Source: Escherichia coli (GTDB lineage: Bacteria; Pseudomonadota; Gammaproteobacteria; Enterobacterales; Enterobacteriaceae). Taken from it: a stretch of 64,000 bases of DNA. Of the stretch, positions 33,723 to 63,769 are shown in pieces. The notes beneath the pieces were generated by a model that saw nothing but the letters and a program-made list of their open reading frames with translations, was not told where the DNA came from and did no database searches. The translations under genes and the position numbers were made by a program. The stretch lies in the NCBI RefSeq assembly GCF_050920415.1, contig NZ_CP169309.1; one strand, 5' to 3'. The first letter of the stretch is position 1. Each line of letters begins with the position of its first letter.

Positions 33723-33728
33723 TGGAAT

Positions 33729-33793: not shown

Positions 33794-33820
33794 AAACTAC
33801 GCTCGCTGCAACCCAGCCGA

Positions 33821-35104: not shown

Positions 35105-36353
35105 TGTTAGCCTCCACATGCGTCATTGCAGCTGTCGTTTTGCGATTCAAAATCGGGTTAAGGATCAGATAACTCAGCGCACCACCTAATACCGCGTTGA
35201 CCGGAACAATGCCCGGTAACCAGTGGCCTGCGGCAATCCCCAGCGCGACCGCCAGAATCGCCACCCAATTGACACTCATCATACGCGTGGTCGCAAAGTG
35301 CTCATAGCGGCGACGGTTCATCAGATAGTCGGCGATGATCACGCCACCCACCGGAGGAATAGCAGCCGAAAGGAAGGTTAGCCAGCCGACAAAATTGTTA
35401 TACAGCCATAGTGCGCAGACCGTGCCGATAATACCGTTGATTACTGAAAGAGTTTTGCTCGACATACCGGTAATATTGGCGAAACCTAAACCCGACGCAT
35501 AGAGCGCGTTATCGTTGGTGGTCCAGATATTCAACCCCAGCACCACAATCGCGGGCAGCAGCAAGCCCTGAGCAATCATCACATCAGAGATATCCGCCAT
35601 CCCCAGTGCCGCAGCGCCTGCCGCACCGAAAATAAACATCAACGAGTTGCCGAGGAAAAAGGCCACCATCGCCACCAGCACCGCCAGTTTGGCATTGCGA
35701 CCAAAGCGGACAAAGTCAGCGGTGAGCGTACCCGCACTGATAAATGACCCCACAACCAGCGCCAGCGCGACATTGAAATCTAGCGGTTGTGCGGGAACGA
35801 CCGCTTTTAAGGCGTCCAAACCGCCCATGCCGTTAACGGCCAGCCATACGGAATAACCGCCAAGGCAGGCAATCGCCGGAACCGCAATCACCGAAAGTAC
35901 CGTCAGCGCCGAAATGCCAAAGAAGACGGTGACGGTCATCAGTAAACCGGAAACGGCAATCAGCAAATTAATATCCAGCCCGGTTGCCTTGCCCACCGGA
36001 ATAGCAAACATCGCCACGCCAACACCAAACCAGCCGACCTGAGTGCCGCCCAGCAGCAGTGAAGGCAGCCATGAGCCTTTAACACCAAACGAGAAGCGAG
36101 CAAGAAGATGGGTGGTCAGGCCGGTTTTTGCGCCAATGTAACCAAGAAATGAAGTGTAAATACCGAGGAGAAGATTACCGATGAGGACTGCGAGGAAGAA
36201 ATCATGATAGCTAAGACCGGTTCCGAGAGTGCCGCCGGTCCACATACTGGCGGAAAAGAAGGTTAATCCCAGCATGACGAACGTCAATGCCAATACCCCT
36301 TTCCGCGCCGACTGCGGGACTGGCCCCTGGCTAAAGTTGTTATCTTGCGACAC
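35094..36353 (-). CDS. codB: Cytosine permease (NCS1 family)
   Basis: 419 aa; [29 protein letters not shown]...; matches CodB. Confidence 0.95.
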
Positions 36354-48152: not shown

Positions 48153-49109
48153 TTAAACCACCCGATCCAGCCCCAACATGCCGCGAGCCTGAATGAAACA
48201 GAGCAGCAACGTTCCCCATAAGGCCATCGTCAGGTAGGGGCTTATCCCGAGAATATTGAAGCCGCTTTCAATAATTTGCAGAAGAAACAGCGCCAGCACC
48301 ATACCAATTATCCGCCCGCTGCCGCCGTCCGGATTAACCCCGCCGAGTACTGCCGCGAGGATTGACACCAGCAAGTACGATTCGCCATAAGAGGCCTTAG
48401 CCGAGTTGAGTTTCGACATCATCAAAAATGCCGCTACCGCACAAAGCAAGGCGGAAATGACATACACCCATATCAGCACCCGACGCGTGTTAATACCGGA
48501 GTAAAGTGTTGCTCGTTCATTAGAACCAATCAGATAAATGGATTTACCGAGCGGTGTTTTCTCCAGCAATATCCACAACCCCAGCGCCACTGCGGTAAAC
48601 AACCACATCGGTAGCGGAATACCGAACCACTGTGCATGATTCAACCACAGCACCCATGAGGGATAATTAGCAATGGCGCTACCGCCTGTCACCAGAATAT
48701 TTACTCCTTTGAGCAACGTCATCATCCCAAGCGTTGCAAGAATTGGCGACACTCGAATACCGGCAATCAATACGCCATTACATAAACCAATTATCACCGC
48801 CGCGCCAGCGCCCGCCAGCAGCGTAGCGACAACCGTAGCAATACCCGGTGGATACTGAGTCGCCACCCACGCCATCACCAGTGAACAGGCGTTAGCAGTG
48901 GCAATAATTGACAAGTTAATGCCACCGCAAAGCATGGTCACCGCCATAGCCAACGCCAGAATGCCCAGCACGGGCATTTGCGAAGCGACGGACTGGAAAT
49001 TACTTATCGACCAGAAAATCTCCGGCATAGTAATGCTGAAGGCGGCAACAGTTAGCACCAGCAGGCCGATCAAGTAAAACTCAACGTTATTACGCCACGA
49101 TTTTTTCAT
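48153..49109 (-). CDS. Carbohydrate ABC transporter permease (CUT2/RbsC-like), second of two
   Basis: About 318 aa multi-TM protein; start ATG 49109 overlaps the upstream permease stop (ATGA); accessory relative to K-12. Confidence 0.85.
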   Translation of the reverse strand: MKKSWRNNVEFYLIGLLVLTVAAFSITMPEIFWSISNFQSVASQMPVLGILALAMAVTMLCGGINLSIIATANACSLVMAWVATQYPPGIATVVATLLAGAGAAVIIGLCNGVLIAGIRVSPILATLGMMTLLKGVNILVTGGSAIANYPSWVLWLNHAQWFGIPLPMWLFTAVALGLWILLEKTPLGKSIYLIGSNERATLYSGINTRRVLIWVYVISALLCAVAAFLMMSKLNSAKASYGESYLLVSILAAVLGGVNPDGGSGRIIGMVLALFLLQIIESGFNILGISPYLTMALWGTLLLCFIQARGMLGLDRVV

Positions 49110-50077
49110 AGCAGACTCCGGTTCTGATGCTGACTCCACGCCGTGGCGCTAATGCTGGCAACGATGATGATGCCTGTGATCAATGTTTGCCAGTAAGACG
49201 AGACTCCCAATAAATTTAGCCCGTTTTGCATCACTGCCAACAACACCACGCCGAGCAAAGTACCGGTTAACGTGCCGCGCCCGCCGAGCAAACTAGTGCC
49301 GCCAAGCACCACCGCAGCCAGTACTGTCAGCTCATAACCCAGAAGAGAATCGGGGGCGACAGTCATCACCGTCCACGACTGCACTACACCCGCAGCACCA
49401 GACATCAATCCCATATAGCCGTAAACGAAAAGTTGCAGTTTCAGCACGCTAAAGCCGATGCGACTGGCTGATTCACGGTTCCCACCAAGGGCATAGATTT
49501 TGCGCCCCACACTGGTGAAATTCATGATAAATGCTGTTAGCAGCACCACCGTAATCATGGCGATCAGCGGCAGACCAAGGCCATAGTCATAGCCGTCAGC
49601 ATCGGTGTACTTGAACAACATTACCCCCTGCTCAAACCACGGCGGAAAGTCGTACAGCCACACACCTTTACTCAACCATAACAGCAGGCCATAGAAAATA
49701 TTCAGCGTCGAAATGGTGATGATGATAGAAGGCACCCGTAGGCGATTAACCAGTAAGGCGTTTATTAAGCCAAGTAAAATGCCGATGCCGCCCGCCAGGG
49801 CAAACGCGACAGCAAAGTTGCCACCCATTTTTTGTAGCAACAGCACCATGCCGTATTGCGCAATGATGGTCATTGCTGGAAACGAAATATCAATTCCACC
49901 GGAAATTAACACCACAAACAAACCACAGGCGAGAATAGTCAACATGGCATAGTTATTGGCGAGATCGTACAAATTACCGAATGTCAGAAACTCGTCGCTG
50001 CGCCAGGCAAGGCCGACAAACAGCCCCACAATCAGTAATGCCAGCCAGAATTCATGACGTTTTTTCAGTTCAGCCAT
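49106..50077 (-). CDS. Carbohydrate ABC transporter permease (CUT2/RbsC-like), first of two
   Basis: 323 aa multi-TM protein; overlaps the ATPase stop by 8 nt. Confidence 0.85.
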   Translation of the reverse strand: MAELKKRHEFWLALLIVGLFVGLAWRSDEFLTFGNLYDLANNYAMLTILACGLFVVLISGGIDISFPAMTIIAQYGMVLLLQKMGGNFAVAFALAGGIGILLGLINALLVNRLRVPSIIITISTLNIFYGLLLWLSKGVWLYDFPPWFEQGVMLFKYTDADGYDYGLGLPLIAMITVVLLTAFIMNFTSVGRKIYALGGNRESASRIGFSVLKLQLFVYGYMGLMSGAAGVVQSWTVMTVAPDSLLGYELTVLAAVVLGGTSLLGGRGTLTGTLLGVVLLAVMQNGLNLLGVSSYWQTLITGIIIVASISATAWSQHQNRSLL

Positions 50078-51554
50078 TTACCACCTCCGCAATCCTGGCC
50101 TGAGAACTGCTGTCAGGCAGGAAGCTATGGGTGATCTGACCTTTTTGCATTACCAAAATCCGGTGGCTTTGATACCACGCTTCTTCAATTTCATCGCAGA
50201 TCATCAATACCGCAATGCCATGAGCCGCCAGATCGCTGATAATGCCGTATATTCCTGCTTTGTTGGCGATATCAACACCGACAGTCGGGCTATCGAGAAT
50301 CAACAGTCGTGGCCCAATCGCCAGCCATTTGGCGATCGATACTCGCTGCGCGTTACCCCCGGAAAGCGTATTCACCGGGAGATGTGGGTCAGAGACTTTG
50401 ATGGTCAATGCCTTAATTAGCCTATCCACCAGGTCACGCACTTTAGCTTCACTCAGAAAGCCGAAGCGATCTTTTACCTTGTGAAAAACAGTGCTAATGA
50501 TGTTGTCTTCAATAGATTGCGCCATCACCAAACCGCGCGACATGCGATCTTCCGAAACATAACCAATACCGTGGCGGATGGCGTCCTGGTTACTATGCAG
50601 TGTTACCGGCTGACCGTTGATGAGGATCTCACCAGCATCCGGTCGGGTCATACCAAACAGACTCAGACATAATTCCGTGCGCCCCGCACCAAGCAGGCCA
50701 ACAATCGACACCACTTCGCCCGCTTCCACCCGCAAGTTAATATTTTGATATTCCCCATGACGACTTAAATTACGCACCTCCAGCACTGGGGTGCTGGATT
50801 TTCCCTGCCACAACTCTCGCACCTGATATTCAAACTCCTGGCCGGTCATCAGGAAACCGAGTTGTTTTGTGGTCATCTCTGCAGCCGGAAAGGTCCCGAC
50901 CAGCTCACCATCTTTCAACACTGAAATACGGTCGGAAACTTCCATCACCTCTTCCAGACGATGACTGACGAAGACCACGCAAATCCCGCGTTCCCGCAAT
51001 TGATGCACCACCTGCAATAACCCTTGCACTTCCTGATGGGTCAGCGAAGCGGTTGGTTCATCCATCACGATCAACCGTGCGTCCTGCGCCAGTGCACGGC
51101 AAATTGCCACCAGCTGACAGCGGGCAATTGAAAGCTCAGAAACGAGCGTATCCAGTGGCAATGTGACGTTAATACTGGTCATTGCCGCCTGCGCCACCTC
51201 ACGCAGACGACGTCGGTTAACAAACAGACCGTGGTGATAGTGATTCACGGCGATATTCTCCCAGACACTCAGGTTAGGAAATAAAGAGAGGTCCTGATAA
51301 ATCACCTGAATCCCCTGCGCCACCGAAGCGGCGGGTGTCAGCTTTGACCAGTTTTTCCCACCAAGCGTAATTTCCGCCCCCTCATCCGGGCGATAAACAC
51401 CGGACATAATTTTAATCAACGTCGATTTACCACAGCCGTTTTGCCCGGCAAGGCAGTGCACCTCACCCGACATAAAGTCGAGAGAAACATCGCGCAGCGC
51501 TCGCGTGGCATGAAACGTTTTGTTGATATGACGAAGGGAAAGGAAGGTTTCCAT
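50070..51554 (-). CDS. Carbohydrate ABC transporter ATP-binding protein with tandem nucleotide-binding domains (RbsA/LsrA-like)
   Basis: About 494 aa from ATG 51554 with AGGGGA upstream; two NBDs (Walker A GQNGCGKST; signature LSGGNAQRV in the second domain). Confidence 0.88.
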   Translation of the reverse strand: METFLSLRHINKTFHATRALRDVSLDFMSGEVHCLAGQNGCGKSTLIKIMSGVYRPDEGAEITLGGKNWSKLTPAASVAQGIQVIYQDLSLFPNLSVWENIAVNHYHHGLFVNRRRLREVAQAAMTSINVTLPLDTLVSELSIARCQLVAICRALAQDARLIVMDEPTASLTHQEVQGLLQVVHQLRERGICVVFVSHRLEEVMEVSDRISVLKDGELVGTFPAAEMTTKQLGFLMTGQEFEYQVRELWQGKSSTPVLEVRNLSRHGEYQNINLRVEAGEVVSIVGLLGAGRTELCLSLFGMTRPDAGEILINGQPVTLHSNQDAIRHGIGYVSEDRMSRGLVMAQSIEDNIISTVFHKVKDRFGFLSEAKVRDLVDRLIKALTIKVSDPHLPVNTLSGGNAQRVSIAKWLAIGPRLLILDSPTVGVDIANKAGIYGIISDLAAHGIAVLMICDEIEEAWYQSHRILVMQKGQITHSFLPDSSSQARIAEVVNG

Positions 51555-51567
51555 AGCATCCCCTGGC

Positions 51568-51592
51568 AATAAGAATCGGGGCTTTCGCCCCG
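51568..51592 (-). terminator. Intra-operon hairpin between binding-protein and ATPase genes (possible partial terminator)
   Basis: CGGGGC-GAAA-GCCCCG stem-loop on the transcribed strand followed by AUUCUUAUU. Confidence 0.4.
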
Positions 51593-51602
51593 AAGAAATG
51601 GA

Positions 51603-52589
51603 TTAATAAAGTGAGTCAATATTGTCTTTGTTGACCAGTAATACCTTATGGAAACGGATAATTCGCTTATCCATATCTACGTCGGCCTTACCGAGATTCT
51701 CCATTTCTAATCCAGGTTTGATCTCTTCACCCTTCAGCAACGTGCTGGCGACGGCCGCGAGTGCGTAACCTGCAGAGGCCGGATCGTAAGTAATCCCTTC
51801 GGTGATATCACCACTTTTAATCAGTGATGCCGCCTGTGAAGGGATCATCATGCCATAGACTGCGACTTTATTTTTCGCCCGTTTCTCTTTCACTGCACGT
51901 CCCGCGCCAATCGGACCGTTTGAACCAAAGGAGACAACCGCTTTCAAGTCAGGATAGGTTTTCATCAGGTCCAGTGTGGTACGACGTGAGTCATCCACAC
52001 TCTCGGCAACCGGCATGCGGCGGGTAACTTCATGCATATCCGGGTAATGCTCTTTCTGGTATTTCACCAGCAAGTCAGCCCATAAGTTATGCTGCGGCAC
52101 GGTCAAACTACCCACGTAAATCACGTAGCCGCCCTTGCCACCCATGCGTTTCGCCATATGTTCAACATATTCAGCGGCAAATTTTTCGTTATCAATGATT
52201 TCGATATCCCAGTTAGCACTTGGCTGACCGGGGGATTCGTTGGTCAGAACCACAATTCCGGCATCTCGCGCTTTTTTGAATACCGGTTCCAGCACGTTGG
52301 CATCGTTTGGCACAATTGTAATTGCATTAACCTTACGGGCGATTAAATCCTCAATGATTTTAACCTGTTGCGGTGCATCAGTACTTGAAGGCCCCACCTG
52401 TGACGCATTAACACCAAAGGCTTTACCCGCCTCGACCACACCTTCGCCCATGCGATTAAACCACGGCATACCATCGACTTTAGAGATATTCACCACGACT
52501 TTTTCCGCGGCCTGGAGCGGCGCAGAAATTAGCGCAGCGCCTAATAACAGCGAAGACACCATATTGATAACAAAACGTTTATTCATCAT
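51603..52589 (-). CDS. Periplasmic sugar-binding protein, LsrB/RhaS-like (type I PBP)
   Basis: 328 aa with signal peptide MMNKRFVINMVSSLLLGAALISAPLQA; C-terminal NKDNIDSLY resembles the LsrB C-terminus; GAGG SD upstream. Confidence 0.85.
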   Translation of the reverse strand: MMNKRFVINMVSSLLLGAALISAPLQAAEKVVVNISKVDGMPWFNRMGEGVVEAGKAFGVNASQVGPSSTDAPQQVKIIEDLIARKVNAITIVPNDANVLEPVFKKARDAGIVVLTNESPGQPSANWDIEIIDNEKFAAEYVEHMAKRMGGKGGYVIYVGSLTVPQHNLWADLLVKYQKEHYPDMHEVTRRMPVAESVDDSRRTTLDLMKTYPDLKAVVSFGSNGPIGAGRAVKEKRAKNKVAVYGMMIPSQAASLIKSGDITEGITYDPASAGYALAAVASTLLKGEEIKPGLEMENLGKADVDMDKRIIRFHKVLLVNKDNIDSLY

Positions 52590-52839
52590 TTCAGCCTCAT
52601 TGCAGGGTAGTCAGGAAGTGTTCGCCCAAATTAGCGCGCTGGAGAGAATAAGAATTTTCGAATATTTTTATGCAGAATAAACAGCCCTATTTCAGGCAGC
52701 TATTAAAAATTTGGTTGTAAATATGGACAAAACGGGCAGTAACAATAAGTGTGACAATCATCACGTAAAAAATAGCAAAATAAACAAAATTAGCGACACT
52801 TTATGTTTGTGAGCTTATTTCGCGTAGAAAAATAGTTAT

Positions 52840-53250
52840 CTACACAACGTCAATAAGGGCATATTCTTCAAAGATAACGTCCATTTCGGGTGAATAGCAT
52901 CCTTCTGCCTGGAAAAAACGACGGTGTTCATTACGCCAATATTCAAGACTGAGGTCACCTTCACCTTCCTTACGGGCAAGCTCCGCGGTGACATCAGAAA
53001 AGCGCAGTAAATGCAGGCCAATAACTCTGATAACACACACAGGCTCACCACGGCTATTTTCTACAATCTTATACTCGCCAATCATCGGAAATGCGTTGTC
53101 TTCAATACATCCCGCCAGCGAACCACAGGAAGCTGTTTTAACACCAGTCGCAATCAACGTTGCGAGGTAATCGGCCAACGCTGCTGAATCGCCAAAAGTA
53201 CAAAAGGAAGCATGGGGATATTTTTGTGAGATTTTTTCTTTTATGGTCAT
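52840..53250 (-). CDS. ASCH-domain protein
   Basis: About 136 aa from ATG 53250 (MTIKEKISQKYPHASFCTFGD...); track ORF extends to a TTG at 53280; start uncertain. Confidence 0.7.
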   Translation of the reverse strand: MTIKEKISQKYPHASFCTFGDSAALADYLATLIATGVKTASCGSLAGCIEDNAFPMIGEYKIVENSRGEPVCVIRVIGLHLLRFSDVTAELARKEGEGDLSLEYWRNEHRRFFQAEGCYSPEMDVIFEEYALIDVV

Positions 53251-53548
53251 GGCAATATTTTCGCGATAACAGAACAACAAATTACATCTTAATTACTGTC
53301 GATAACTATCAGCAAGAGGATCATTGGTTTTTCTATGTTTAATCTTTTTTATCCGAAGCAGGTCACATTTATGACTTGATAAATACCTTTGTTAAAACTC
53401 ACTTTTGTGTATTTCTCTCAAATAATCCCCTGGAAATTATGCCGGGAGATTATAAAGTTCAGGATCATTCATTAACAAACCATTCCCGCCCCACTCCCTG
53501 GGGCTTAAATCTCTTACTATTCACCGTTGCAGGCGTTTCAAATTCGTA

Positions 53549-54931
53549 TCAACCTGCCACACTCCCCCACACCAGTTGCCCTTTATGGAACGTTGCGGTT
53601 CTCGGCGAGATACGCGCCACCGCCTCGGCGGAACAGGAGGCGTCCACCAGCACAAAGCTGGCGTCATCCTGCGCTTTGGGCCAGACGCGCTCGCCTTTTT
53701 CGTTGAGCGGCAATACATCACCAGTGGCTAAAAACAGCGAGCGGGAGAGGTTCTGTTCGTTAGGACGAATATAGAGTTGCGCATACAGATTGGCTTTTTC
53801 CAGCATGTCACCCAGGCCGTAAGGCGACCAGTGGTCGATAACGCTGTCGGTGCCAGTCATGACTTTTACACCTTTGTCGTGCAGCTGTTTGAGTGGCATA
53901 TGCAACGTGCCAATCGGTACCGTCGAGGCAATAGAAATTTGCTGCGCCGCCATCCGGTGCGCCAGTTCATCTACCTGTTGCTCATTGAGCGTTGCCAGCG
54001 CAAAGGCGTGGCTGATGGTCAGTTTGCCCTTCAGTTGCGGCGTTTTCTCCACCATTTCAACCATATAATTGATGGCCGCCACGCCTGCCGGAGTGGTTTC
54101 ATGCAGATGAATATCGACGCCTTTGTCGTAGTCCAGCGCAATCTGGAACATGGTGTCGAGGGATTTTTCCATCGCGCCATCAACACTGGTCGGGTCCAGC
54201 CCGCCGACGTAATGCGCCCCTGCCTGCATCGCTTCACGCATCAAGGGTTCCGATTTCGACAGCAGCAAACCGTGCTGCGGGAAGGCGACGATTTCACACT
54301 CGAAGCCCGCCTGACGTCGCGCCAGCACCGCCTGCAAATTTTGCAGATTTTTCAGGCCGGAAACCGGTTCGATATTGCAGTGGCTGCGGGCAATGGTGGT
54401 GCCTTTCGACTGCAATAAATCGATCAGTTTTTCTGCCCGCTCCTGAGTGTAGGGTTGCAGTTCCGGCAGCATTTTCTGCTCAAGTTTGATCATGTCCTGG
54501 ATAGTGGTGCCTGCAGGGCGATTGAGTGAGCGCCACGGTCCGCCGTAAAAGGTTTTGTCAAGATGAATATGCATGTCGCGAGTAGTGGGCAACATAAGCT
54601 TACCGCCAGCGTCATAGTGCGGTAGCGTGGCGTCCGGATGCTGCTTGTTCTCATGTAGCGCAACAATTTTACCGTCCTGAATCTCCACGGTCTGGCGCGC
54701 CGTGCGGGTCTGTACTGCCACACCGTTTTCGTAGTCAAAACCGGTTTCCAGCAGCACGTTGTCGAGATAGTAGTGCGGGTCAGTGATTTTCATTGTGTTA
54801 TTCGCGTCGCAGTGGGTTGTGCCAGAGACCTCCGCATGGGCGAATGGCACAGAGGTACCAAACAGCGCGGCGGCGGTGACCATCTTACCGCTCTGGCTCA
54901 AAAACTCACGACGGCTATTGTTTTCTTTCAT
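53549..54931 (-). CDS. yahJ: Tat-secreted amidohydrolase-family deaminase
   Basis: 460 aa; twin-arginine signal SRREFL followed by a hydrophobic stretch; amidohydrolase motifs (DMHIHLD, VDIHLHE); matches YahJ. Confidence 0.9.
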   Translation of the reverse strand: MKENNSRREFLSQSGKMVTAAALFGTSVPFAHAEVSGTTHCDANNTMKITDPHYYLDNVLLETGFDYENGVAVQTRTARQTVEIQDGKIVALHENKQHPDATLPHYDAGGKLMLPTTRDMHIHLDKTFYGGPWRSLNRPAGTTIQDMIKLEQKMLPELQPYTQERAEKLIDLLQSKGTTIARSHCNIEPVSGLKNLQNLQAVLARRQAGFECEIVAFPQHGLLLSKSEPLMREAMQAGAHYVGGLDPTSVDGAMEKSLDTMFQIALDYDKGVDIHLHETTPAGVAAINYMVEMVEKTPQLKGKLTISHAFALATLNEQQVDELAHRMAAQQISIASTVPIGTLHMPLKQLHDKGVKVMTGTDSVIDHWSPYGLGDMLEKANLYAQLYIRPNEQNLSRSLFLATGDVLPLNEKGERVWPKAQDDASFVLVDASCSAEAVARISPRTATFHKGQLVWGSVAG

Positions 54932-54940
54932 CTTACGTCC

Positions 54941-55891
54941 TTACGTTTTAATAATATGGGTGCCCGTCTCGCCACGCAGCGCCGCGGGCAGGCATTCCGG
55001 CGTGGTGATAATCACTTCTTTACCGCCCTGTTCCAGGAACGTCAGGCTGGCGATGATTTTTGGCAACATGCTGCCTGGCGGGAAATGCCCTTCCTGCATA
55101 TAGCGGGTCATGGTGGCAATATCCACCCGATCCAGCGCCTGCTGCTGCGGTTTGCCAAAATGAATACACACTTTTTCGACGCCGGTGGTGATCACCAGAA
55201 TGTCGGCGTGAATTTCGCGGGCCAGCAGCGCGGTGGAGAGATCTTTGTCGATAACCGCGTCCACGCTTTGGTAATCTCCCGCGTCAGTACGCACCACCGG
55301 AATTCCGCCACCGCCCGCACCAATCACCACAAACCCTTGTTGGATCAGCGCTTTAATGGCAGGTGCTTCAACAATACGTTTCGGTTCCGGCGAGGCGACC
55401 ACGCGGCGATAGCCGCGTCCGGCATCTTCAACAAAACGCCAGTCAGGGTTTGCCTTTTGAAATTCGTTACGCTGGCTTTCACTGAAGAATGCGCCAATGG
55501 GCTTGGTGGGGTGAGCAAATCCCGGATCGTTTTTATCCACTTCCACCTGAGTCACCACGGTGACGGCTTTTTTCTCGCCGTGGCGCGCCAGCCGATTGTT
55601 CAGCGCCTGTTGGATCAAGTAGCCAATGCCGCCTTGCGTATCCGCCACACAGTTCGCCAGCGGCGTTAAGGGCAGCCCTTCGCGCTCGTGGGCAATCTCC
55701 GCGCGGCGTAAATCCAGCCCGACCTGCGGCCCGTTGCCGTGGGTCAGCACAATGTCGTAATCGGAAGCCAGCATTTCCAGCACCGTATCGGCGACGGCCT
55801 TCACCGCCTCCGCCTGATGCTCAATCGACTGGCTGGCGTTATCTTTGATAATGCTGTTGCCACCAATGGCAACGACCACAAGTTCTTTCAT
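54941..55891 (-). CDS. yahI: Carbamate kinase-like protein
   Basis: 316 aa amino acid kinase fold; N-terminal VVVAIGGNS; matches YahI. Confidence 0.92.
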   Translation of the reverse strand: MKELVVVAIGGNSIIKDNASQSIEHQAEAVKAVADTVLEMLASDYDIVLTHGNGPQVGLDLRRAEIAHEREGLPLTPLANCVADTQGGIGYLIQQALNNRLARHGEKKAVTVVTQVEVDKNDPGFAHPTKPIGAFFSESQRNEFQKANPDWRFVEDAGRGYRRVVASPEPKRIVEAPAIKALIQQGFVVIGAGGGGIPVVRTDAGDYQSVDAVIDKDLSTALLAREIHADILVITTGVEKVCIHFGKPQQQALDRVDIATMTRYMQEGHFPPGSMLPKIIASLTFLEQGGKEVIITTPECLPAALRGETGTHIIKT

Positions 55892-55940
55892 GTTGTTATG
55901 TCCGCTACAGAGGGTGATGGGGTTATGACCAACGCCAAAT

Positions 55941-56021
55941 TGCCTGATGCGCTACGCTTATCAGGCCTACAGATTCTTGCGCCACTCGTAGGCCGGATAA
56001 GGCGTTCACGCCGCATCCGGC
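55941..56021. repeat. REP elements between yahI and yahG
   Basis: TGCCTGATGCGCTACGCTTATCAGGCCTAC and GTAGGCCGGATAAGGCGTTCACGCCGCATCCGGC. Confidence 0.8.
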
Positions 56022-56044
56022 AGAGACAACGCGCACTTTGCAGG

Positions 56045-57463
56045 TCAGACGCCGTAACGTTCGCACCAGCCAAGAATGGCTTTTTCGAAGCAGGCGAATG
56101 GTGGATGCACAATGCCCGCGCCAATCATGCCGACGCCCGCATCTTTATGGGCAATGGCGGTGTTGATCACCGGCAGAATGCCACTGCTACCCACGCGGGT
56201 GATGTCGATTGCCGTCGGCACACCCATAAAACCGAGCAGCGGAATGGTCACGTTGGGGTTTTCGCCGAGGGTGATTTCGCGCATCTGACGGGAGAAATCG
56301 ATAGCCTCTTCCACCGTACCGCCCACCAGCGCGACGATTGCAGGCGCGGTCGCCATAGCAAATCCACCAATGCCGTAGGTTTCGGTGATGGCGCTGTCGC
56401 CAATATCCAGCCCCGAATCTTCCGGCTTATAACCGGCAAACATCGGGCCGATGACCTGTTGCGCCGGGCCGGTAAACCACTGCCCCGGCAGGCCGCTGAC
56501 TCGCAGGCCGAACTCGACACCGTTACGCGCCATGGTGGTCACCACGGTGCTGTATTCAATGCCGTGCGCCGCATCCATCGCTGCTTTACACATTGCCATC
56601 CACGTCGGGCCGGAGAAGTAATCGCTGCTGGCGACAAACTCAAACACTTCGCGCTGTTGCTCGACGGAATAACCCGCCTGAATAATCCCCGGCGTCAGCG
56701 CCTGAATCAGCAGCGTCGTCCCGGCGTTATTGCGGTTATGGCATTCATCGCCCATATGCAGCGCCTGCGCCAGCATTAAGCGCAGATCAATCTCACCGAG
56801 AATCTTCATTGCGTCGCGCAGCATGGGCCCCTGCACATCGCGCATCCAGTTCAGGCGGTCAATCACGCTCTGATCGTTAGCGCCCATACGCAAAATCTTC
56901 GCCATCTGCTCGCTCATGTTGGTGTAAGCGATGTTGCCGTAGGTTTTGTTTTTCACGATGTGCATAAACATCGAGGCCGAGGTAACACCCGCCATCGAAC
57001 CCACGCAGTCGTGTTCGTGGCACGGCGAGAAAGTGATCTCCCCGGAGGCCGCCAGTTCAGCCGCCTCGTCAAGATCTTTCGCCAGTCCTTCGAACACCAG
57101 CGCCCCGGTGACCGCGCCTTTCATCGCGCCGCACATTTTTTCCCAGGTCACTGGTGGCCCGGCGTGAAGAATGGTTTTCGGCGTCATACCCGGCACCACG
57201 TTAATCGCCTGATCAAAACCAATCAGCACCGGATGCGACTGGATAATCCGCTCCAGCGCCTGCTGGTTAGCGGCGGCGATTTTGTCTGCCAGCGGCGAAT
57301 CGGCAATGTTATCCAGCGCCTGCACCACCTGCATATTGCCCTGCCCCGGCGGCGTCCAGTCGAGTTGGGTCACTTCTACATGCTGCTTTTTCAGATCATC
57401 GCTAAACATAGCGATGCCGACATTAATAACGTTCAACGGTTGGCTAAACAGTGACTGGCTCAT
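56045..57463 (-). CDS. yahG: DUF1116-family protein (YlbE-like)
   Basis: 472 aa from ATG 57463, overlapping the yahF stop (TGATG); matches YahG. Confidence 0.9.
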   Translation of the reverse strand: MSQSLFSQPLNVINVGIAMFSDDLKKQHVEVTQLDWTPPGQGNMQVVQALDNIADSPLADKIAAANQQALERIIQSHPVLIGFDQAINVVPGMTPKTILHAGPPVTWEKMCGAMKGAVTGALVFEGLAKDLDEAAELAASGEITFSPCHEHDCVGSMAGVTSASMFMHIVKNKTYGNIAYTNMSEQMAKILRMGANDQSVIDRLNWMRDVQGPMLRDAMKILGEIDLRLMLAQALHMGDECHNRNNAGTTLLIQALTPGIIQAGYSVEQQREVFEFVASSDYFSGPTWMAMCKAAMDAAHGIEYSTVVTTMARNGVEFGLRVSGLPGQWFTGPAQQVIGPMFAGYKPEDSGLDIGDSAITETYGIGGFAMATAPAIVALVGGTVEEAIDFSRQMREITLGENPNVTIPLLGFMGVPTAIDITRVGSSGILPVINTAIAHKDAGVGMIGAGIVHPPFACFEKAILGWCERYGV

Positions 57464-59010
57464 CAGGCTTCCTCCCCTTTGCAAATAAATTCACGCGCCA
57501 GCAATCCGGTATTGGTGCTGCTGCTGGCCAGAATCACCCCGGCATCAAGCAGCATCTGGCTTTGTTGTGCTAACGATGGCGTATCGAGATCGGTACCCAG
57601 CACATAGGCGAGAATGATCAACTCGCGGCCTTCGGCGGCAGCGATCGCTTTCGCTTCTTTGATCGCCTCGATGGTGGAACCGACCGGATCTTCATGCGAT
57701 CCAAATCCGAGCACAAAATCCATCACGATCACCGCCACTTCTGGATCACGCGCTTCTTCGATCAAGCGACTGATGCGATTGGTGGGGTCAATCATTGGAT
57801 GCGGCTTGCCGTTGGTGAAGTCGTCATCACCAAAGTCGAGGAAGGTGTGTTTGATGCTGCGGTTGATATCTTGCAGGCGGAATTCAGGATCGGGCTGGAT
57901 GTTGCTGTAGACATCGCCGTGTTTTTCCATCACCGCGAACATGGTTTCGTCACACAGCGTGCCGCCGCAGAACAGGCCACGAATGTATTTCTGCCGCGGT
58001 TGCAGACGCGCCCGCACATCCGCAATCAACGGCTGGTTCAGCGTATGCAGCTCGAGATGTTCTTGTTTCACGCCGGAGAGCATCACCGCTTTCAATGCCG
58101 CCTCTTTGCTGCCGCGAGCAAACTGTAGCCCCTGCTCATCCACTGGCGTTTCGCCACGACCGAGGAAGCAGACCACCACCGGCTTGCGGCAGGCGCGTGC
58201 GCGTTCCAGCACTTTGCGGGCCACCGCAGGCGCAGGCGGTTTGGAGATAAGTACAATGATTTCAGTTTGCGGATCGTTTTCCAGCATCCCGATAGCGTCG
58301 AGCATCATCAGGCCGCCGATTTTCTCGCTCAGGTCGCGCCCGCCGGTGCCAATCAGTTGCGAAATGCCGCCACCAAATTCATGAATGCGGACGCTCAGCT
58401 CCTGGCTACCGGTGCCGGATGCGCCAACAATACCGATGTTGCCGCGACGCACAGCGTTACCAAAGCAGAGCGCCGCGCCGTTGATAATCGCCGTGCCGCA
58501 GTCTGGCCCCATCATCAGCAGCCCTTTTTCGTGGGCCAGTTGCTTGAGCGCCAGTTCATCTTCAACTGAGACATTATCGGAAAACAGCATCACGTTAAGA
58601 TCGTTTTGCAGCGCCTGACGCGCTTCGCGAGCGGCAAACAGACCGTTGACCGAAATCACTGCCAGGTTACTTTCCGGGATATGCTTTTTGGCGCTGGCAA
58701 TAGTGGCATAACGCGCCTCGTGCGAGCCGCTTTGCGCTTTGCTGTTGAACAGTTCTTCAATCTCCACCAGCAACTGCTCGTTGTCTGCGCCCGCTTTGCC
58801 GTTGATGACAATCATCAGGTCGCCGTTTTTCGCCTGCTCCAGCTCCGGCGTCAGCAGCCCTAAATTCTTCAGAACGCCTTTGTTCATTTCGGTCGCCATC
58901 GCCACAAATGCCTGCTCGACGCCGTCGAGTTTATTTGCACGCGTGGAGATAGACATCAGCGAGACAGAATCAAAATAGGTATTCGGTTTAATGACTATTT
59001 TAACTGACAT
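57463..59010 (-). CDS. yahF: FdrA-like protein (CoA-binding, succinyl-CoA synthetase alpha-like fold)
   Basis: 515 aa; matches YahF; overlaps yahE by 11 nt. Confidence 0.9.
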   Translation of the reverse strand: MSVKIVIKPNTYFDSVSLMSISTRANKLDGVEQAFVAMATEMNKGVLKNLGLLTPELEQAKNGDLMIVINGKAGADNEQLLVEIEELFNSKAQSGSHEARYATIASAKKHIPESNLAVISVNGLFAAREARQALQNDLNVMLFSDNVSVEDELALKQLAHEKGLLMMGPDCGTAIINGAALCFGNAVRRGNIGIVGASGTGSQELSVRIHEFGGGISQLIGTGGRDLSEKIGGLMMLDAIGMLENDPQTEIIVLISKPPAPAVARKVLERARACRKPVVVCFLGRGETPVDEQGLQFARGSKEAALKAVMLSGVKQEHLELHTLNQPLIADVRARLQPRQKYIRGLFCGGTLCDETMFAVMEKHGDVYSNIQPDPEFRLQDINRSIKHTFLDFGDDDFTNGKPHPMIDPTNRISRLIEEARDPEVAVIVMDFVLGFGSHEDPVGSTIEAIKEAKAIAAAEGRELIILAYVLGTDLDTPSLAQQSQMLLDAGVILASSSTNTGLLAREFICKGEEA

Positions 59011-59863
59011 AATTCCCTCCGTAGGTTTGGCTCAGCGCACAACCATCGGCCATGCCATACAGCATGTCGCAGCCGGAACTGGAGCCAATATGTTTAATTT
59101 TTTCTATTGCCTGAGTTGCGTTCCCAGGTATGTCATAAATAATGTTATGAATAAAACGATGAATATTTTCCCGGCAGCGTTGTTGTAATGCGGCTTCCAG
59201 CGTTATGGCACTTAATAACGTGGTATTATTTCTGCCGCGTTGCAGACCGAGATAAAATTCCTCTTTGTATTTTTCCGCCGGATGCCCGGGAATAAATGAA
59301 ATAAGCGCCAGACCTGTTAAATAATCATCGGCTGATGGTGTAAGGCCAATCCCTAACCCCATCATACTGACGACCGCTGAGGCGATATTTTGTTTATCGT
59401 TTACGGCCTGAATAACTGCCCGTCGTTTAATATGTAATTCTTTTTTTAATGCCTGATAGAACGGGTTATCGCCACAATAATTAAACAGGGTTTCATTTTC
59501 CCCCAGGTGTTGATGAATAATGTCGTGCCACTGTTGCCAGGCGATAAGGTGAAAATTTTCAGCGGTCATTTGCAAAGCTGGGGACAGCCAACGCTGGCAA
59601 TGACTCATCTCTATATGAAGATGTTGACCAACCGTAATACCTTGATCATCAAACTGAACCTTATCACCATGACGGAACAGACCATCAAAGTGAGTGAGTG
59701 CCAACCGACAACTGTTTGGCGCATTGTCGTACTCTTCACAAAGCAGTGTCAGCAACTGCTGGCGGGCCGGAAGTGCGATATTTACCGCTCTGGCAAAGAC
59801 CTGTTCAACCTGTCCTTGCCCCCGCTGCGCCAGAAAATCAGCATCCGCAGTTAGCGCCCACAC
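59000..59863 (-). CDS. yahE: DUF2877-family protein (YlbF-like)
   Basis: 287 aa; matches YahE. Confidence 0.88.
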   Translation of the reverse strand: MWALTADADFLAQRGQGQVEQVFARAVNIALPARQQLLTLLCEEYDNAPNSCRLALTHFDGLFRHGDKVQFDDQGITVGQHLHIEMSHCQRWLSPALQMTAENFHLIAWQQWHDIIHQHLGENETLFNYCGDNPFYQALKKELHIKRRAVIQAVNDKQNIASAVVSMMGLGIGLTPSADDYLTGLALISFIPGHPAEKYKEEFYLGLQRGRNNTTLLSAITLEAALQQRCRENIHRFIHNIIYDIPGNATQAIEKIKHIGSSSGCDMLYGMADGCALSQTYGGNYVS

Positions 59864-59902
59864 ACACCGTCTTTCTGGTGTGTTGATAGCAAGCCTCCCG
59901 GT

Positions 59903-60508
59903 TTATGCACCTGCGGCAATCAGTAACTGCGCAATCTCTTCAAAGCCTCGTTCCCGCGCCAGTTCCAGCGGCGTTTTGCCATATTTATCCGTCATGTGCG
60001 GGCTGGCACCGTGTTCCAGCAATAACTGGACAATCGCCTGCTGTTTTATCCCGCCATCATTAAGCACAATTGCTTCCAGTAGCGGCGTCCAGCCAACATG
60101 GTTGGTCTGGTTAACGTTAATCTCCGTATGCGCCAAAAGCTCTTTTACAATACTTAAATGGCCTTTTTCACAGGCAGGCGTCAGGCCGACACCGCCAAAA
60201 CGGGTGACGCAATTAAGATCGGGTTTAGCCGGTAAAATAATCCGTAACAGGGTTAAATCGCCGGTCAGGCAGCTAATTAAAAAAGGATTTGAACATATCT
60301 GATCTTGCTTATTAATATCCGCTCCGGCATCAATTAATGCCTGAACGCAAGCATATTGCTGATATAAACTTGCCAGCGTAATTGCCGTTTTCCCCTGACG
60401 ATCGCAGGTATTAATATCGACCCCCAGCGCAAGGCAGGTTTTTACTTTATCGATATCACCCTGTTGCGCAGCCAATAAATAGTCGGCAGGTAGATTTTTT
60501 ATAGTCAT
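59903..60508 (-). CDS. yahD: Ankyrin-repeat protein
   Basis: 201 aa with several ankyrin-type repeats (e.g. GKTAITLASLYQQYACVQALIDAGADIN); matches YahD. Confidence 0.9.
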   Translation of the reverse strand: MTIKNLPADYLLAAQQGDIDKVKTCLALGVDINTCDRQGKTAITLASLYQQYACVQALIDAGADINKQDQICSNPFLISCLTGDLTLLRIILPAKPDLNCVTRFGGVGLTPACEKGHLSIVKELLAHTEINVNQTNHVGWTPLLEAIVLNDGGIKQQAIVQLLLEHGASPHMTDKYGKTPLELARERGFEEIAQLLIAAGA

Positions 60509-60765
60509 TCACATTCCCCTGGTTTTTGTGGCTGTTTTCGATGAATTGAGAATAGCAACGATAATCTGATAAAAGAACCCGCTTAAATTTAATTCGCCGT
60601 ATTTCGCCTTTTTGTTGAATGATGTTCAACAATCTTTTCGCAGTGTGCGGTAGTGCAATATTTATTTCTTTGACCCGATACCCTTTCACTCAATCAGGTT
60701 TTATTTCTCTATAGTCTGCACATGTAAGAGTAGCTTTCGTCCATGTCTAACCAGAGGGGAACAAG

Positions 60766-61263
60766 ATGAACGGACTCACGGCAACGGGTATAACCGTCGG
60801 TATTTGTGCAGGGCTTTGGCAGTTAGTGTCTTCACATGTCGGGCTCTCTCAGGGATGGGAATTATTAGGAACCATTGGCTTCGTCGCCTTTTGCAGTTTT
60901 TATGCCGCAGGCGGCGGTAAATCGGGGTTTATCAGAAGCCTGGCGGTTAATTATTCCGGGATGGTGTGGGCGTTTTTCGCCGCGCTGGCTGCCGGTTGGC
61001 TGGCCTCGGTGAGTGGGATTTCCGGCTTCTGGGCGAGCGTGATTATGACTGTACCCTTCTCGGCGGTGGTGGTCTGGCAAGGACGTTTCGGTTTACTGTC
61101 TTTTATTCCCGGAGGCTTTCTCGGCATGACGCTATTTTTTGCCAGCGGGATGAACTGGACGGTGACATTACTGGGTTTTCTGGCGGGTAACTGCGTGGGG
61201 ATAATTTCAGAATATGGCGGACAAAAATTAAGCGAAGCGACGACTAAACGCGACGGGTATTAA
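60766..61263 (+). CDS. yahC: Inner-membrane DUF1097 protein
   Basis: 165 aa with 4-5 TM segments; matches YahC. Confidence 0.88.
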   Translation: MNGLTATGITVGICAGLWQLVSSHVGLSQGWELLGTIGFVAFCSFYAAGGGKSGFIRSLAVNYSGMVWAFFAALAAGWLASVSGISGFWASVIMTVPFSAVVVWQGRFGLLSFIPGGFLGMTLFFASGMNWTVTLLGFLAGNCVGIISEYGGQKLSEATTKRDGY

Positions 61264-61354
61264 AAGTTATTCAAAAATGATTATCTATCTTTAACCGATA
61301 CCTCTACAGTCATAGCTGGAGAAATTCATAGTAGATAATGGCGGGAATGGTTTA

Positions 61355-62287
61355 ATGAACTCAATTTTTACCGAAGAGAATCTGTTGGCATTTACTACCG
61401 CTGCGCGTTTTGGCAGCTTCAGTAAAGCTGCAGAAGAGTTGGGTTTAACCACTTCCGCCATTAGCTACACCATCAAGCGAATGGAAACAGGGCTGGATGT
61501 GGTGCTGTTCACTCGCAGTACCCGCAGCATTGAGTTAACGGAGTCCGGGCGTTATTTTTTCCGCAAAGCTACCGACCTGCTGAATGATTTTCACGCCATC
61601 AAACGCAGCATCGATACTATTTCGCAGGGCATAGAAGCGCGTGTGCGTATTTGTATTAATCAGCTGCTTTATACGCCCAAACACACCGCACGCTTATTAC
61701 AGGTACTGAAAAAGCAATTTCCAACCTGCCAGATTACCGTCACCACCGAAGTGTATAATGGCGTCTGGGATGCGATTATTAATAATCAGGCGAATATCGC
61801 TATCGGCGCACCCGACACGCTGCTGGACGGCGGCGGCATTGATTACACGGAGATTGGCGCGATTCGCTGGGCTTTTGCTATCGCCCCGGATCACCCGTTA
61901 GCCTTTGTGCCGGAACCCATCGCCGAAAGCCAACTACGTCTCTATCCTAATATCATGGTGGAAGACACCGCGCATACGATTAATAAAAAAGTGGGCTGGT
62001 TGCTGCATGGGCAGGAGTCGATTCTGGTGCCAGATTTCAACACCAAATGTCAGTGCCAGATTTTAGGCGAAGGAATTGGTTTTTTGCCGGATTACATGGT
62101 CCGTGAGGCGATGGCGCAATCCCTGCTGGTTACCCGACAAATCCATAATCCGCGCCAGGATTCACGCATGTTACTGGCGACCCAGCACTCTGCCACCGGT
62201 CAGGTGACGCAGTGGATTAAAAAACAATTTTCGCCAAATGGCATATTAACAGGGATCTATCAGGATTTACTGCATCGGGAGAATTAA
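61355..62287 (+). CDS. yahB: LysR-family transcriptional regulator
   Basis: 310 aa; N-terminal LysR HTH (FTTAARFGSFSKAAEELGLTTSAISYTIKRME); matches YahB. Confidence 0.9.
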   Translation: MNSIFTEENLLAFTTAARFGSFSKAAEELGLTTSAISYTIKRMETGLDVVLFTRSTRSIELTESGRYFFRKATDLLNDFHAIKRSIDTISQGIEARVRICINQLLYTPKHTARLLQVLKKQFPTCQITVTTEVYNGVWDAIINNQANIAIGAPDTLLDGGGIDYTEIGAIRWAFAIAPDHPLAFVPEPIAESQLRLYPNIMVEDTAHTINKKVGWLLHGQESILVPDFNTKCQCQILGEGIGFLPDYMVREAMAQSLLVTRQIHNPRQDSRMLLATQHSATGQVTQWIKKQFSPNGILTGIYQDLLHREN

Positions 62288-62328: not shown

Positions 62329-63315
62329 TCAACCACCTGCTTTCATTACCCATTCAGAGATAAATTTATTACCCGGTACTGGCGGAGAGTACAAATAGCC
62401 CTGCAAAAAGTGAACGCCTTTGCCGATCATTAAATCCGCCTGCTCCTGGGTTTCTACCCCTTCCGCCACGATACTCAGACCAGGCTTACGCGCCAGTTCG
62501 ACAATATTGTCCACAATATGACCGGAAATTTCGTCGACACTCGCCATTTGCACAAACGACTTGTCAATTTTAATAAAATCGACCGGAAACGCCTGCAAAT
62601 AACGATAGGTCGCATAACCCGTACCAAAGTCATCCAGCGCAAAGGTAATGTTGTGCTGATGAAGGCTGTCAAATATCGCTCTGGCTTCTGGCGTTACCGG
62701 AATGGGGTTGCGTTCCGTTAGCTCAAGAACCAGCTTGATTTTATCGTTACCTAATTTCTTGACCAGGTTCAGACACTCTTTTTCAAATCCTGCGGCCAAA
62801 AAACATCCTGCCGAGACGTTGATGCCAATATGGAAATTATCCGGCAGCAAATGTTTTACTGGCATCAGAATATCCGCAGTCTGTTTCATCAGCTGGCGAG
62901 TCATTATGACAATAAGACCGGATGACTCCGCCAGAGGAATAAACTGATCCGGTGGGATAATTCCCGTTTGCGGATGTTCCCAGCGAACAAGCACTTCACA
63001 GCCCGTCAGTACCCCTGTCTGCGCGCAGAAAACGGGCTGGATCCACGGTTTGAATTCGTGATTTTCCAACGCCAGACTGATGGCTTCAGGCGTGACGATA
63101 TGGTGACAACGGTTATCAGGAATATAAAAATTATTTTTATTTCCCTTGCCACTGATGACTTGCGGATGATATTGAAAAAAGATATCCCGCCAGAAAGTAA
63201 TATCACTCTGGATGCCTAATTTTTCATACAACTGCTTCTTCTGATGTGAAATTGTCTTTGCGCTACGATTTCTGTATTGTGATATTTCTGTAACCGACAT
63301 TCCCTCCATTAGTAG
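62329..63315 (-). pseudogene. pdeL: c-di-GMP phosphodiesterase PdeL (YahA), 5' end interrupted by IS2 inside the LuxR-type HTH
   Basis: Reverse-strand frame encodes ...LLMEGMSVTEISQYRNRSAKTISHQKK... plus a complete EAL domain; codons upstream of LLM are IS2 left-end sequence; the open frame runs into IS2 up to 63447. Confidence 0.8.
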
Positions 63316-63403
63316 ACTGGCCCCCTGAATCTCCAGACAACCAGTATCACTTAAATAAGTGATAGTCTTAATACTAGTTTTTAGACTAGTCATTGGAGAA
63401 CAG

Positions 63404-63769
63404 ATGATTGATGTCTTAGGGCCGGAGAAACGCAGACGGCGTACCACACAGGAAAAGATCGCAATTGTTCAGCAGAGCTTTGAACCGGGGATGACGGTCT
63501 CCCTCGTTGCCCGGCAACATGGTGTAGCAGCCAGCCAGTTATTTCTCTGGCGTAAGCAATACCAGGAAGGAAGTCTTACTGCTGTCGCCGCCGGAGAACA
63601 GGTTGTTCCTGCCTCTGAACTTGCTGCCGCCATGAAGCAGATTAAAGAACTCCAGCGCCTGCTCGGCAAGAAAACGATGGAAAATGAACTCCTCAAAGAA
63701 GCCGTTGAATATGGACGGGCAAAAAAGTGGATAGCGCACGCGCCCTTATTGCCCGGGGATGGGGAGTAA
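63404..63769 (+). CDS. insC: IS2 OrfA (InsC) HTH protein
   Basis: 121 aa from ATG 63404 with GGAG upstream ([41 protein letters not shown]...). Confidence 0.92.

Follow-up and report, generated by a model that had tools for sequence, protein, structure and literature searches.

The last steps of anaerobic allantoin degradation in Escherichia coli are encoded by allFGHK (PMC11326118, PMC9843812, PMC12535856). The allFGH genes specify oxamic transcarbamylase (OXTCase), an enzyme that turns oxalurate and phosphate into carbamoyl phosphate and oxamate (Kim and Kim 2024, PMC11326118). AllF, AllG, and AllH were purified and assayed as one preparation, whose activity was measured, and AllH is required for full OXTCase function (PMC11326118). 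AllK (YbcF) is a catabolic carbamate kinase (PMC9843812), and AllS activates allFGHK from a site at -203 to -144 (PMC12535856). The yah paralogs of these genes go unmentioned in PMC11326118 and PMC9843812. The current work examines yahE, yahF, yahG, yahI, and yahJ, together with the adjacent yahD, yahC, and yahB, in a 64,000-nucleotide stretch (the window) of E. coli contig NZ_CP169309.1 (assembly GCF_050920415.1). In a 2024 survey of the y-ome, yahC, E, G, H, I, and J are still among the uncharacterized genes, and the literature on yah gene function yielded only lists, a twin-arginine (Tat) export prediction, and one mouse competition result. The analysis makes it reasonably probable that yah is one catabolic module, which would draw nitrogen and ATP from a compound rich in nitrogen that contains, or gives rise to, an N-acyl-urea group.

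An earlier note, made from the DNA sequence alone, had described the genes from yahJ to yahE as coding for a Tat-exported amidohydrolase (YahJ), a carbamate kinase homolog (YahI), and FdrA-like, DUF1116, and DUF2877 proteins (YahF, YahG, and YahE). Pfam and NCBIfam matches agree with all five families. YahE matches Pfam PF11392 (formerly DUF2877, now AllH; E = 1.5e-27) and YahG matches PF06545 (formerly DUF1116, now AllG; E = 4.4e-89). YahF carries the Pfam domains Ligase_CoA and CoA_binding, scores 491 bits against the NCBIfam FdrA model, and matches FdrA of PDB entry 3dmy with E = 7e-83. YahI reaches 647 bits against the carbamate kinase subfamily PRK12352 (cut-off 266) and 347.4 bits against the strict arcC equivalog TIGR00746, just under its cut-off of 358.25; it is thus a member of the carbamate kinase family but is not called an equivalog, and its predicted reaction is that of carbamoyl phosphate with ADP to give ATP and carbamate. 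The yahI gene is one of three carbamate kinase genes in E. coli, the others being ybcF/arcC and yqeA.

The triad and carbamate kinase of the allantoin region to which the earlier note had pointed are present in K-12 as fdrA-ylbE-ylbF-ybcF, adjoining allDCE, and the link of that triad to oxamate and carbamoyl phosphate now has experimental backing (PMC11326118). Pairwise comparison with K-12 confirms the paralogy of the two sets: identity is 39% for YahF/AllF (E = 6e-103), 45% for YahG/AllG (E = 8e-120), 25% for YahE/AllH (E = 8e-11), and 38% for YahI/AllK (YbcF). The AllF, AllG, and AllH families, which form the three subunits of an AllFGH-type transcarbamylase, are encoded together in the yah cluster, and a carbamate kinase gene lies beside them, with yahI 153 nt downstream of yahG. 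By these matches, yah appears to be a sister module of allFGHK and a member of the AllFGH plus carbamate kinase kind. Orthology within the same subfamily was not found, as identities are only 25-45%, YahG and AllG fall in different clades of a neighbor-joining tree of 84 family members, and both sets occur in one genome.

Like allFGHK, the yah cluster combines the three families with a carbamate kinase, tightly coupled genes, and an AllS-like LysR regulator (PMC11326118, PMC9843812, PMC12535856). Its chemistry is presumably also the same: an acyl-urea and phosphate would give carbamoyl phosphate and an amide, and then ATP. The two modules differ, however, in several respects. The yah order is E-F-G-I, whereas the all order is F-G-H-K; the yah cluster adds an ankyrin protein, a Tat-signal amidohydrolase, and, outside Escherichia, a dedicated permease; the allantoin genes allB, allC, allD, and allE are not near yah; the locus has no gene for the AllH-type subunit in 21 of 71 species; and chromosomal yahEFG fails to replace AllFGH in deletion mutants. 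The arginine deiminase pathway (arcABC) and the ygeW-yqeA region follow the same logic as that proposed for yah, with transfer of a carbamoyl group to phosphate and subsequent formation of ATP by carbamate kinase. These systems use classical transcarbamylases of the aspartate/ornithine transcarbamylase (ATCase/OTCase) fold, whereas all uses, and yah would use, the unrelated AllFGH-type enzyme.

The five genes from yahJ to yahE are intact on the minus strand at the coordinates given by the earlier note, and the RefSeq annotation of E. coli MFDS1022581 has the same five genes with 100% identity over 53549-59863. The boundary drawn by that note does not hold: yahD and yahB, and in this lineage also yahC, belong to the unit and lie outside it. 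As had been claimed, the yahF stop and yahG start codons share TGATG, a 1-nt overlap at 57463, and yahE overlaps yahF by 11 nt (59000-59010); 9 nt separate yahI from yahJ and 39 nt separate yahD from yahE. Translational coupling is found at three junctions (yahF/yahG, yahE/yahF, and yahI/yahJ), and the gap between yahG and yahI consists of repetitive extragenic palindromic (REP)/bacterial interspersed mosaic element (BIME) palindromes. The earlier suggestion that the overlapping genes encode a single complex gains strength from gene fusions. Some proteins, about 1000 aa long, consist of a YahF-like half (36% identity) joined to a YahG-like one (46%), and in Zophobihabitans entericus (L071, 7536-9989) YahE and YahF occupy one reading frame of 817 aa, an apparent natural fusion. 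The purification of AllF-AllG-AllH as one preparation points in the same direction.

The distribution of the cluster was determined by scanning one genome per species with YahG and mapping the window proteins onto the 80 best loci, which span Enterobacterales and Aeromonas cavernicola; 71 of these loci reach far enough downstream of yahI to be informative. Gene order in the informative loci is fixed, with yahB divergent from yahD-(yahE)-yahF-yahG-[~515-aa permease]-yahI-yahJ. Both yahI and, 3' of it, yahJ are kept in all 71, yahD occurs in 78 of the 80 loci (the remaining two are cut at a contig end), and yahB stands beside the cluster in 75 of 80. YahG is the most conserved protein of the module, with 86-99% identity across the 80 species. 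Median identities to the window proteins are 90% for YahG and YahB, 86% for YahI, 83% for YahJ, 81% for YahF, 70% for YahD, and 55% for YahE. The yahE gene is absent from the 21 loci mentioned above, which belong to Enterobacter, Leclercia, Lelliottia, Silvania, Huaxiibacter, and Aeromonas and leave no room for it between yahD and yahF. The yah set is not an oddity of E. coli; it is conserved in Enterobacterales, in Aeromonas, and even in Lysinibacillus.

The best family matches of YahB are AllS (268 bits, cut-off 372) and PunR (239 bits, cut-off 345); since both scores fall below the cut-offs, YahB is a paralog of these regulators and not an equivalog. Comparison across species also supplied two elements upstream of yahD. 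A TGAA-N5-TTCA dyad of the T-N11-A type, allowing at most one mismatch, occurs between -185 and -95 of yahD in 67 of the 78 species compared; shuffled sequences give 4.8 on average and 10 at most. The element TTGCTATNCT, allowing at most one substitution, is located at -90 to -20 in 74 of the 78, and its copy in the window possibly serves as an extended -10 (TGcTATTCT). A sigma-70 scan upstream of yahD did not find a full-consensus promoter, and a simple promoter and terminator scan gave nothing above shuffled background. Control of the cluster by YahB, which the earlier note had raised for testing, would fit both the AllS match and the conserved dyad.

YahJ scores 717 bits against the NCBIfam amidohydrolase model PRK06846, and its N-terminus, MKENNSRREFLSQSGKMVTAAALFGTSVPFAHA, is a twin-arginine signal in which SRREFL is followed by the hydrophobic stretch MVTAAALFGTSVPF and then by AHA as the A-x-A site. 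The motif, in the form [S/G/N/D]RR[E/Q]F[L/I], the hydrophobic stretch, and the A-x-A site are kept in all 14 YahJ orthologs, from 13 genera. The description of YahJ as a Tat-exported amidohydrolase is thus borne out, with export as a prediction. Published lists likewise give YahJ as a predicted Tat substrate with no function assigned (PMC7549933, PMC3027627), and a yahJ deletion mutant of extraintestinal pathogenic E. coli had a competitive index of 0.70 in mice.

The nearest solved structures to YahJ are 6nbo, annotated as AtzC (E = 4e-44), then AtzC (N-isopropylammelide isopropylaminohydrolase), and then the cytosine deaminase CodA (cytosine/isoguanine/creatinine deaminase); AtzC and CodA are mononuclear members of the amidohydrolase superfamily. 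YahJ shares their fold and, aligned with the CodA of the window, keeps the HxH metal ligands, the Gln of FPQ, HxxE, the His of SH, and the metal-binding Asp. Unlike CodA, it has Ser at the position of the substrate-binding Asp314, and it scores only 71-103 bits against the cytosine deaminase equivalogs, whose cut-offs are 403-483; the true codBA operon is located elsewhere in the window, at 33821-36353. Low equivalog scores and the Ser at Asp314, combined with retention of the catalytic residues, indicate a CodA/AtzC-type hydrolase that is not an ortholog of cytosine deaminase. CodA and AtzC are not known to carry an export signal, whereas YahJ has a Tat signal and is predicted to be periplasmic. 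YahJ is accordingly predicted to be a periplasmic deaminase or deiminase of the CodA/AtzC subgroup. Orthologs with 77-80% identity and an intact Tat motif also occur without yahEFGI in Shewanella (L005, 10001-11437) and Xenorhabdus (L007, 1375-2763). No shared partner of these stand-alone genes was found, as the small upstream genes in the two genera are unrelated to each other.

Between yahG and yahI, 55 of the 71 informative loci carry a gene for a polytopic membrane protein of 512-526 aa. In Escherichia this position is occupied by the REP/BIME array, annotated in K-12 as the protein-coding gene yahH, which the y-ome paper describes as filled with REP23 sites. A tblastn search for a permease remnant in the yahG-yahI spacer found none. 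The copy number of the BIME (paired REP) varies, with one at 55892-56044 in the window and four in tandem in K-12 (L003, 9745-10165).

The permease had zero matches among Pfam, NCBIfam, and PDB sequences, and hhalign found nothing with YbbY and only a weak colinear match with AdeP (E = 0.003, probability 9.5%). Its AlphaFold model (predicted local distance difference test, pLDDT, 73; predicted TM-score, pTM, 0.72) resembles SLC26Dg, BicA, SULTR, SVCT1, UraA, and AZG1/2, with TM-scores of 0.5-0.57. The model contains two short mid-helix strands, at residues 84-86 and 302-304, of a kind typical of the 7+7 UraA fold. Placed by this structure model alone, the permease would have a UraA/SLC26/AzgA-type fold, and a UraA/SLC26 fold cannot separate a nucleobase carrier from an anion carrier. 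Some sources label the protein "xanthine permease" or "AGZA family". Homologs with 35-38% identity flank AllH-AllF-AllG and a carbamate kinase in an unrelated metagenomic contig of low guanine-plus-cytosine content, so the link between transporter and core is old.

The permease and yahC exclude each other. All 16 permease-less loci have yahC between yahB and yahD, the other 55 have the permease without yahC, and no locus has both or neither. The permease-less form is found in Escherichia, Pseudocitrobacter, Kluyvera, C. amalonaticus, Klebsiella spallanzanii, Raoultella, and their closest relatives. Because these 16 loci are also the closest by YahG identity, loss of the permease and presence of yahC probably represent one evolutionary event and not repeated substitution. 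E. coli has lost a dedicated transporter that most related bacteria have kept.

Mobile and strain-variable DNA was also observed around the cluster. Copies of it occur in about 117 E. coli plasmid records. On the IncFII plasmid pJnd12_1 (NZ_CP095821.1; L093, 11979-20412) the copy is of the permease-containing form, with genes for a LysR regulator, an ankyrin protein, a DUF2877 protein, FdrA, a DUF1116 protein, a "xanthine permease", and carbamate kinase; it is flanked by insertion sequences, and an ISL3 element cuts it before yahJ. Between yahJ and yahK, the window contains a strain-variable island (48153-53280) with an ASCH-domain gene and a four-gene ATP-binding cassette (ABC) transporter of the sugar/autoinducer-2 (AI-2) type, consisting of an LsrB/RhaS-like binding protein, an ATPase, and two permeases. 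The island occurs in 2213 of 5426 complete E. coli genomes, O157:H7 included, and K-12 and BL21 keep only its boundary fragments. These genes were considered as a replacement carrier and rejected; the transporter is of the sugar/AI-2 type, is unlinked to the cluster in other genera, and is present in 41% of E. coli genomes.

More distant relatives give further information on the role of the slots around the core. Lysinibacillus (Bacillota) has a YahD-E-F-G-x-I block in which YahD, E, F, G, and I are 54, 28, 65, 75, and 57% identical to the window proteins. Its transporter slot is filled by an NCS1 permease of the allantoin/cytosine type that matches the allantoin permease model best. The position following the kinase is filled by a 152-aa deaminase of the cytidine deaminase (CDA) fold, unrelated to YahJ and nearest to guanosine/guanine deaminases (E about 1e-31). 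An M20 enzyme of the allantoate amidohydrolase subfamily (AllC-like) follows, and a PucR regulator lies upstream; a plasmid search with this block gave no match. In each of the two slots around this conserved core, the proteins found are unrelated (two deaminases in one, two uptake-type carriers in the other), which argues that a nucleobase-like or ureide compound is deaminated and taken up as an integral part of the process.

One YahG relative (49% identity) is encoded directly after an AtzD/TrzD ring-opening amidohydrolase, and another (44%) stands with a BiuH-like hydrolase, PucR, and uracil phosphoribosyltransferase in the metagenomic contig that carries the permease homologs. These neighborhoods match published gene arrangements in nitrifiers, in which allFGHK-like genes lie together with those for biuret and triuret (PMC12625717). 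The yah cluster thus resembles the AtzD/TrzD, BiuH, and TrtA systems in the surroundings of its nearest non-enteric YahG relatives and in the AtzC-type affinity of YahJ. Unlike the cyanuric acid, biuret, and triuret systems, however, the E. coli cluster lacks AtzD, BiuH, and TrtA as well as allophanate hydrolase. In L098 (1325-14003) and L099, AllH, AllG, and AllF homologs (40% identity to YahG) were observed with carbamate kinase absent; their neighbors are ComA (phosphosulfolactate synthase), two Lyase_1 proteins, PALP, a pyridine-nucleotide disulfide oxidoreductase, and an AIRS protein.

A pathway can be proposed for the yah module. Exported YahJ would first remove an amino or imino group hydrolytically in the periplasm, acting on an aminated pyrimidine-, s-triazine-, or purine-like ring or on an acyl-guanidine. 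The product would then be taken up, in most genera through the UraA/SLC26-fold permease and in Escherichia through YahC or an unlinked carrier. In the cytoplasm, YahF-YahG, with YahE as an accessory subunit and the ankyrin protein YahD as a further partner, would split the carbamoyl-N bond of the acyl-urea with phosphate to give carbamoyl phosphate and an amide. YahI would move the phosphate to ADP, yielding ATP, NH3, and CO2, and YahB, as a paralog of AllS, would turn on the yahD promoter. The genes present, their paralogy and conserved order, the Tat motif of YahJ and its retained catalytic residues, purifying selection, and the biochemical activity of the AllFGH paralog are established by the sequences or by published work. 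We infer in which order the steps run, that YahEFG itself transfers a carbamoyl group, what kind of compound is the substrate, and that YahB is the regulator.

Several points weigh against this pathway. The dedicated permease is absent in E. coli, and the pathway may be inoperative in this host. The cluster contains no ring-opening enzyme, so that a step is missing if the substrate is a stable ring. The place of the YahJ step in the order is uncertain; in the periplasm, YahJ could just as well act last, on an amide excreted once the cytoplasmic reactions are complete, and its stand-alone occurrence in Shewanella and Xenorhabdus shows that it does not depend strictly on the rest. Because 21 of 71 loci lack yahE, whereas OXTCase is fully functional only with AllH, the Yah enzyme may differ in mechanism. 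Moreover, since AllF, AllG, and AllH homologs occur without carbamate kinase near ComA, lyases, and PALP, the chemistry of the family may be broader than carbamoyl transfer. Finally, the only known yah phenotype is the weak competitive defect of the yahJ mutant in mice.

A more specific form of the catabolic module can be considered, although it is rather improbable. The cluster would then be an ATP-yielding route for aminated s-triazine-, 5-aza-pyrimidine-, or acyl-guanidine-type compounds in gut and soil bacteria, in which an acyl-urea is split by phosphate and not by water. Its components would include an ankyrin subunit and a transporter from a family without a model in Pfam or NCBIfam, and in E. 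coli YahC would have taken the place of this lost transporter. Candidate compounds resemble ammelide, guanylurea, biuret, or triuret and would arise by purine oxidation or from xenobiotics, for example melamine or metformin.

Alternatively, YahEFG may be a second OXTCase that acts on oxalurate from a source other than allantoin, for example periplasmic parabanate or oxalyl-guanidine converted by YahJ, with the resulting anion imported by the SLC26-like permease. The presence of all three AllFGH families alongside a carbamate kinase, the AllS-like regulator, and the SLC26/SulP anion carriers among the best folds of the permease are in keeping with such a role. It is nevertheless unlikely. With yahEFG intact, K-12 mutants lacking allF, allG, or all of allFGH form no oxamate from allantoin (PMC11326118), a result that could also reflect non-expression of yahEFG. 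YahG and AllG, 45% identical, belong to separate clades, and the closest non-enteric relatives stand with AtzD-, BiuH-, and guanine-deaminase-type genes and not with allantoin genes. The separate clade, the lack of oxamate in all of these mutants, and the triazine-, biuret-, and guanine-type neighborhoods thus indicate that YahEFG is probably not a spare oxalurate enzyme. As a separate observation, allFGH deletion strains produced oxamate at 16% of the wild-type amount when given allGH alone and at 7% when given allFG alone (PMC11326118, Table 3). It is possible that YahF or YahE partly replaces the missing subunit in these strains, a speculation that is undiscussed in PMC11326118.

The cluster of Escherichia might instead be a stranded remnant, kept only by chance or by a side activity after loss of the permease put the substrate out of reach; it would then serve no pathway in this host. 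The permease gene is indeed gone, with a REP/BIME array in its place and zero remnant, the genes are still y-ome members without phenotype there, and no OXTCase back-up was seen. However, the pattern of retention makes this explanation quite unlikely. At a coverage of at least 80%, yahEFG are present in 5020 and yahIJ in 5035 of the 5426 complete E. coli genomes (about 93%); a query that also spanned the REP array and the strain-variable flank gave an artefactually low 3066 of 5426, and with coding sequence only the value is about 93%. The window allele differs from K-12 by a synonymous divergence (dS) of 0.11-0.25, unusually deep for E. coli. Ratios of nonsynonymous to synonymous divergence (dN/dS) against K-12 are 0.026 for yahG, 0.031 for yahI, 0.033 for yahB, 0.053 for yahJ, 0.072 for yahF, 0.098 for yahD, 0.137 for yahC, and 0.155 for yahE, and none of the yah open reading frames has an internal stop. 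Every gene of the cluster is under strong purifying selection, and the cluster is not decaying in E. coli. In addition, yahC was gained in exactly the permease-less variants, and deletion of yahJ causes a small fitness defect in vivo.

A synthetic direction is very unlikely. In it, YahEFG would carbamoylate an amide with carbamoyl phosphate from YahI or CarAB, and the acyl-urea would be exported and trimmed by YahJ. OXTCase was assayed in the synthetic direction, as carbamoyl phosphate plus oxamate, and YahJ is predicted to lie outside the cytoplasm; both points favor this reading. However, wherever the family has been characterized beside a carbamate kinase, its role is catabolic; the regulators are of purine-catabolism type (AllS/PunR-like, and PucR in Lysinibacillus), and the co-located transporters belong to uptake families, NCS1 and the UraA fold.

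That YahF is an acyl-CoA synthetase, as its database name "acyl-CoA synthetase FdrA" says, and that the cluster activates a carboxylic acid with coenzyme A (CoA) beside an incidental kinase homolog, is scarcely credible: YahF does have the Pfam CoA_binding and Ligase_CoA domains and resembles the alpha subunit of succinyl-CoA synthetase (SCS), but its characterized paralog AllF is part of a transcarbamylase and not a CoA ligase, the cluster encodes no SCS beta-type (ATP-grasp) partner, residues ~284-320 of YahF, after the SCS-alpha-aligned region, where SCS-alpha has its GHAGA-like phosphohistidine motif, contain no such motif, and a carbamate kinase gene accompanies the F-G pair in all 71 informative enteric loci and in Lysinibacillus.

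The placement of yah as one catabolic module concerns eight adjacent E. coli genes, yahB to yahJ, to which current listings assign no function, and it gives them a concrete, testable pathway. The parts would be an AllFGH-type transcarbamylase and carbamate kinase core, a periplasmic deaminase, a cognate regulator, and a permease lost in E. coli. Because the dedicated transporter is missing, work on K-12 may have found nothing; Citrobacter, Enterobacter, Serratia, and Lysinibacillus would be better hosts in which to find the substrate. If the substrate is indeed of the purine-oxidation or triazine/biuret type, yah would be a third carbamoyl-phosphate-based fermentation of nitrogen heterocycles in Enterobacterales and would widen the substrate range of the newly defined AllFGH family. 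The features of the locus are collected in Table 1.

Table 1. Genes and candidate regulatory elements of the yah locus, in window coordinates
Feature	Position	Strand	Basis
yahJ, amidohydrolase	53549..54931	minus	
yahI, carbamate kinase family protein	54941..55891	minus	
REP/BIME spacer, site of phantom "yahH"	55892..56044	none	
yahG, AllG-family (ex-DUF1116) subunit	56045..57463	minus	
yahF, AllF/FdrA-family subunit, SCS-alpha-like fold	57463..59010	minus	
yahE, AllH-family (ex-DUF2877) subunit, fast-evolving	59000..59863	minus	
yahD, cytoplasmic ankyrin-repeat protein, first gene of the operon	59903..60508	minus	ankyrin-family matches
TTGCTATTCT, conserved element 41-50 nt upstream of the yahD ATG	60549..60558	minus	cross-species comparison
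TGAACATCATTCA, T-N11-A dyad, candidate YahB (LysR) site 120 nt upstream of the yahD ATG	60616..60628	minus	
yahC, small DUF1097 membrane protein	60766..61263	plus	translation
yahB, LysR-type regulator, divergent from yahD	61355..62287	plus	AllS/PunR family scores

The surroundings of the locus provide some additional observations. The window allele of the whole yah locus (53549-62287) diverges deeply from most E. coli, with a nucleotide identity of 94-96%, and only one genome is identical to it. The neighboring yahK is closer to K-12 (dS 0.085), and the deep divergence of yah beside it suggests that the yah allele of the window is old or imported. A cyanate operon (cynR, cynTSX) and codBA are located at 30345-36353, about 17-23 kb from yah, so that several systems for scavenging small nitrogen compounds are neighbors. 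On the other side of the locus, the last 326 residues of the pdeL product (62329-63447) are 95% identical to K-12 PdeL and the N-terminal ~40 residues do not align, which suggests a divergent N-terminus or another start.

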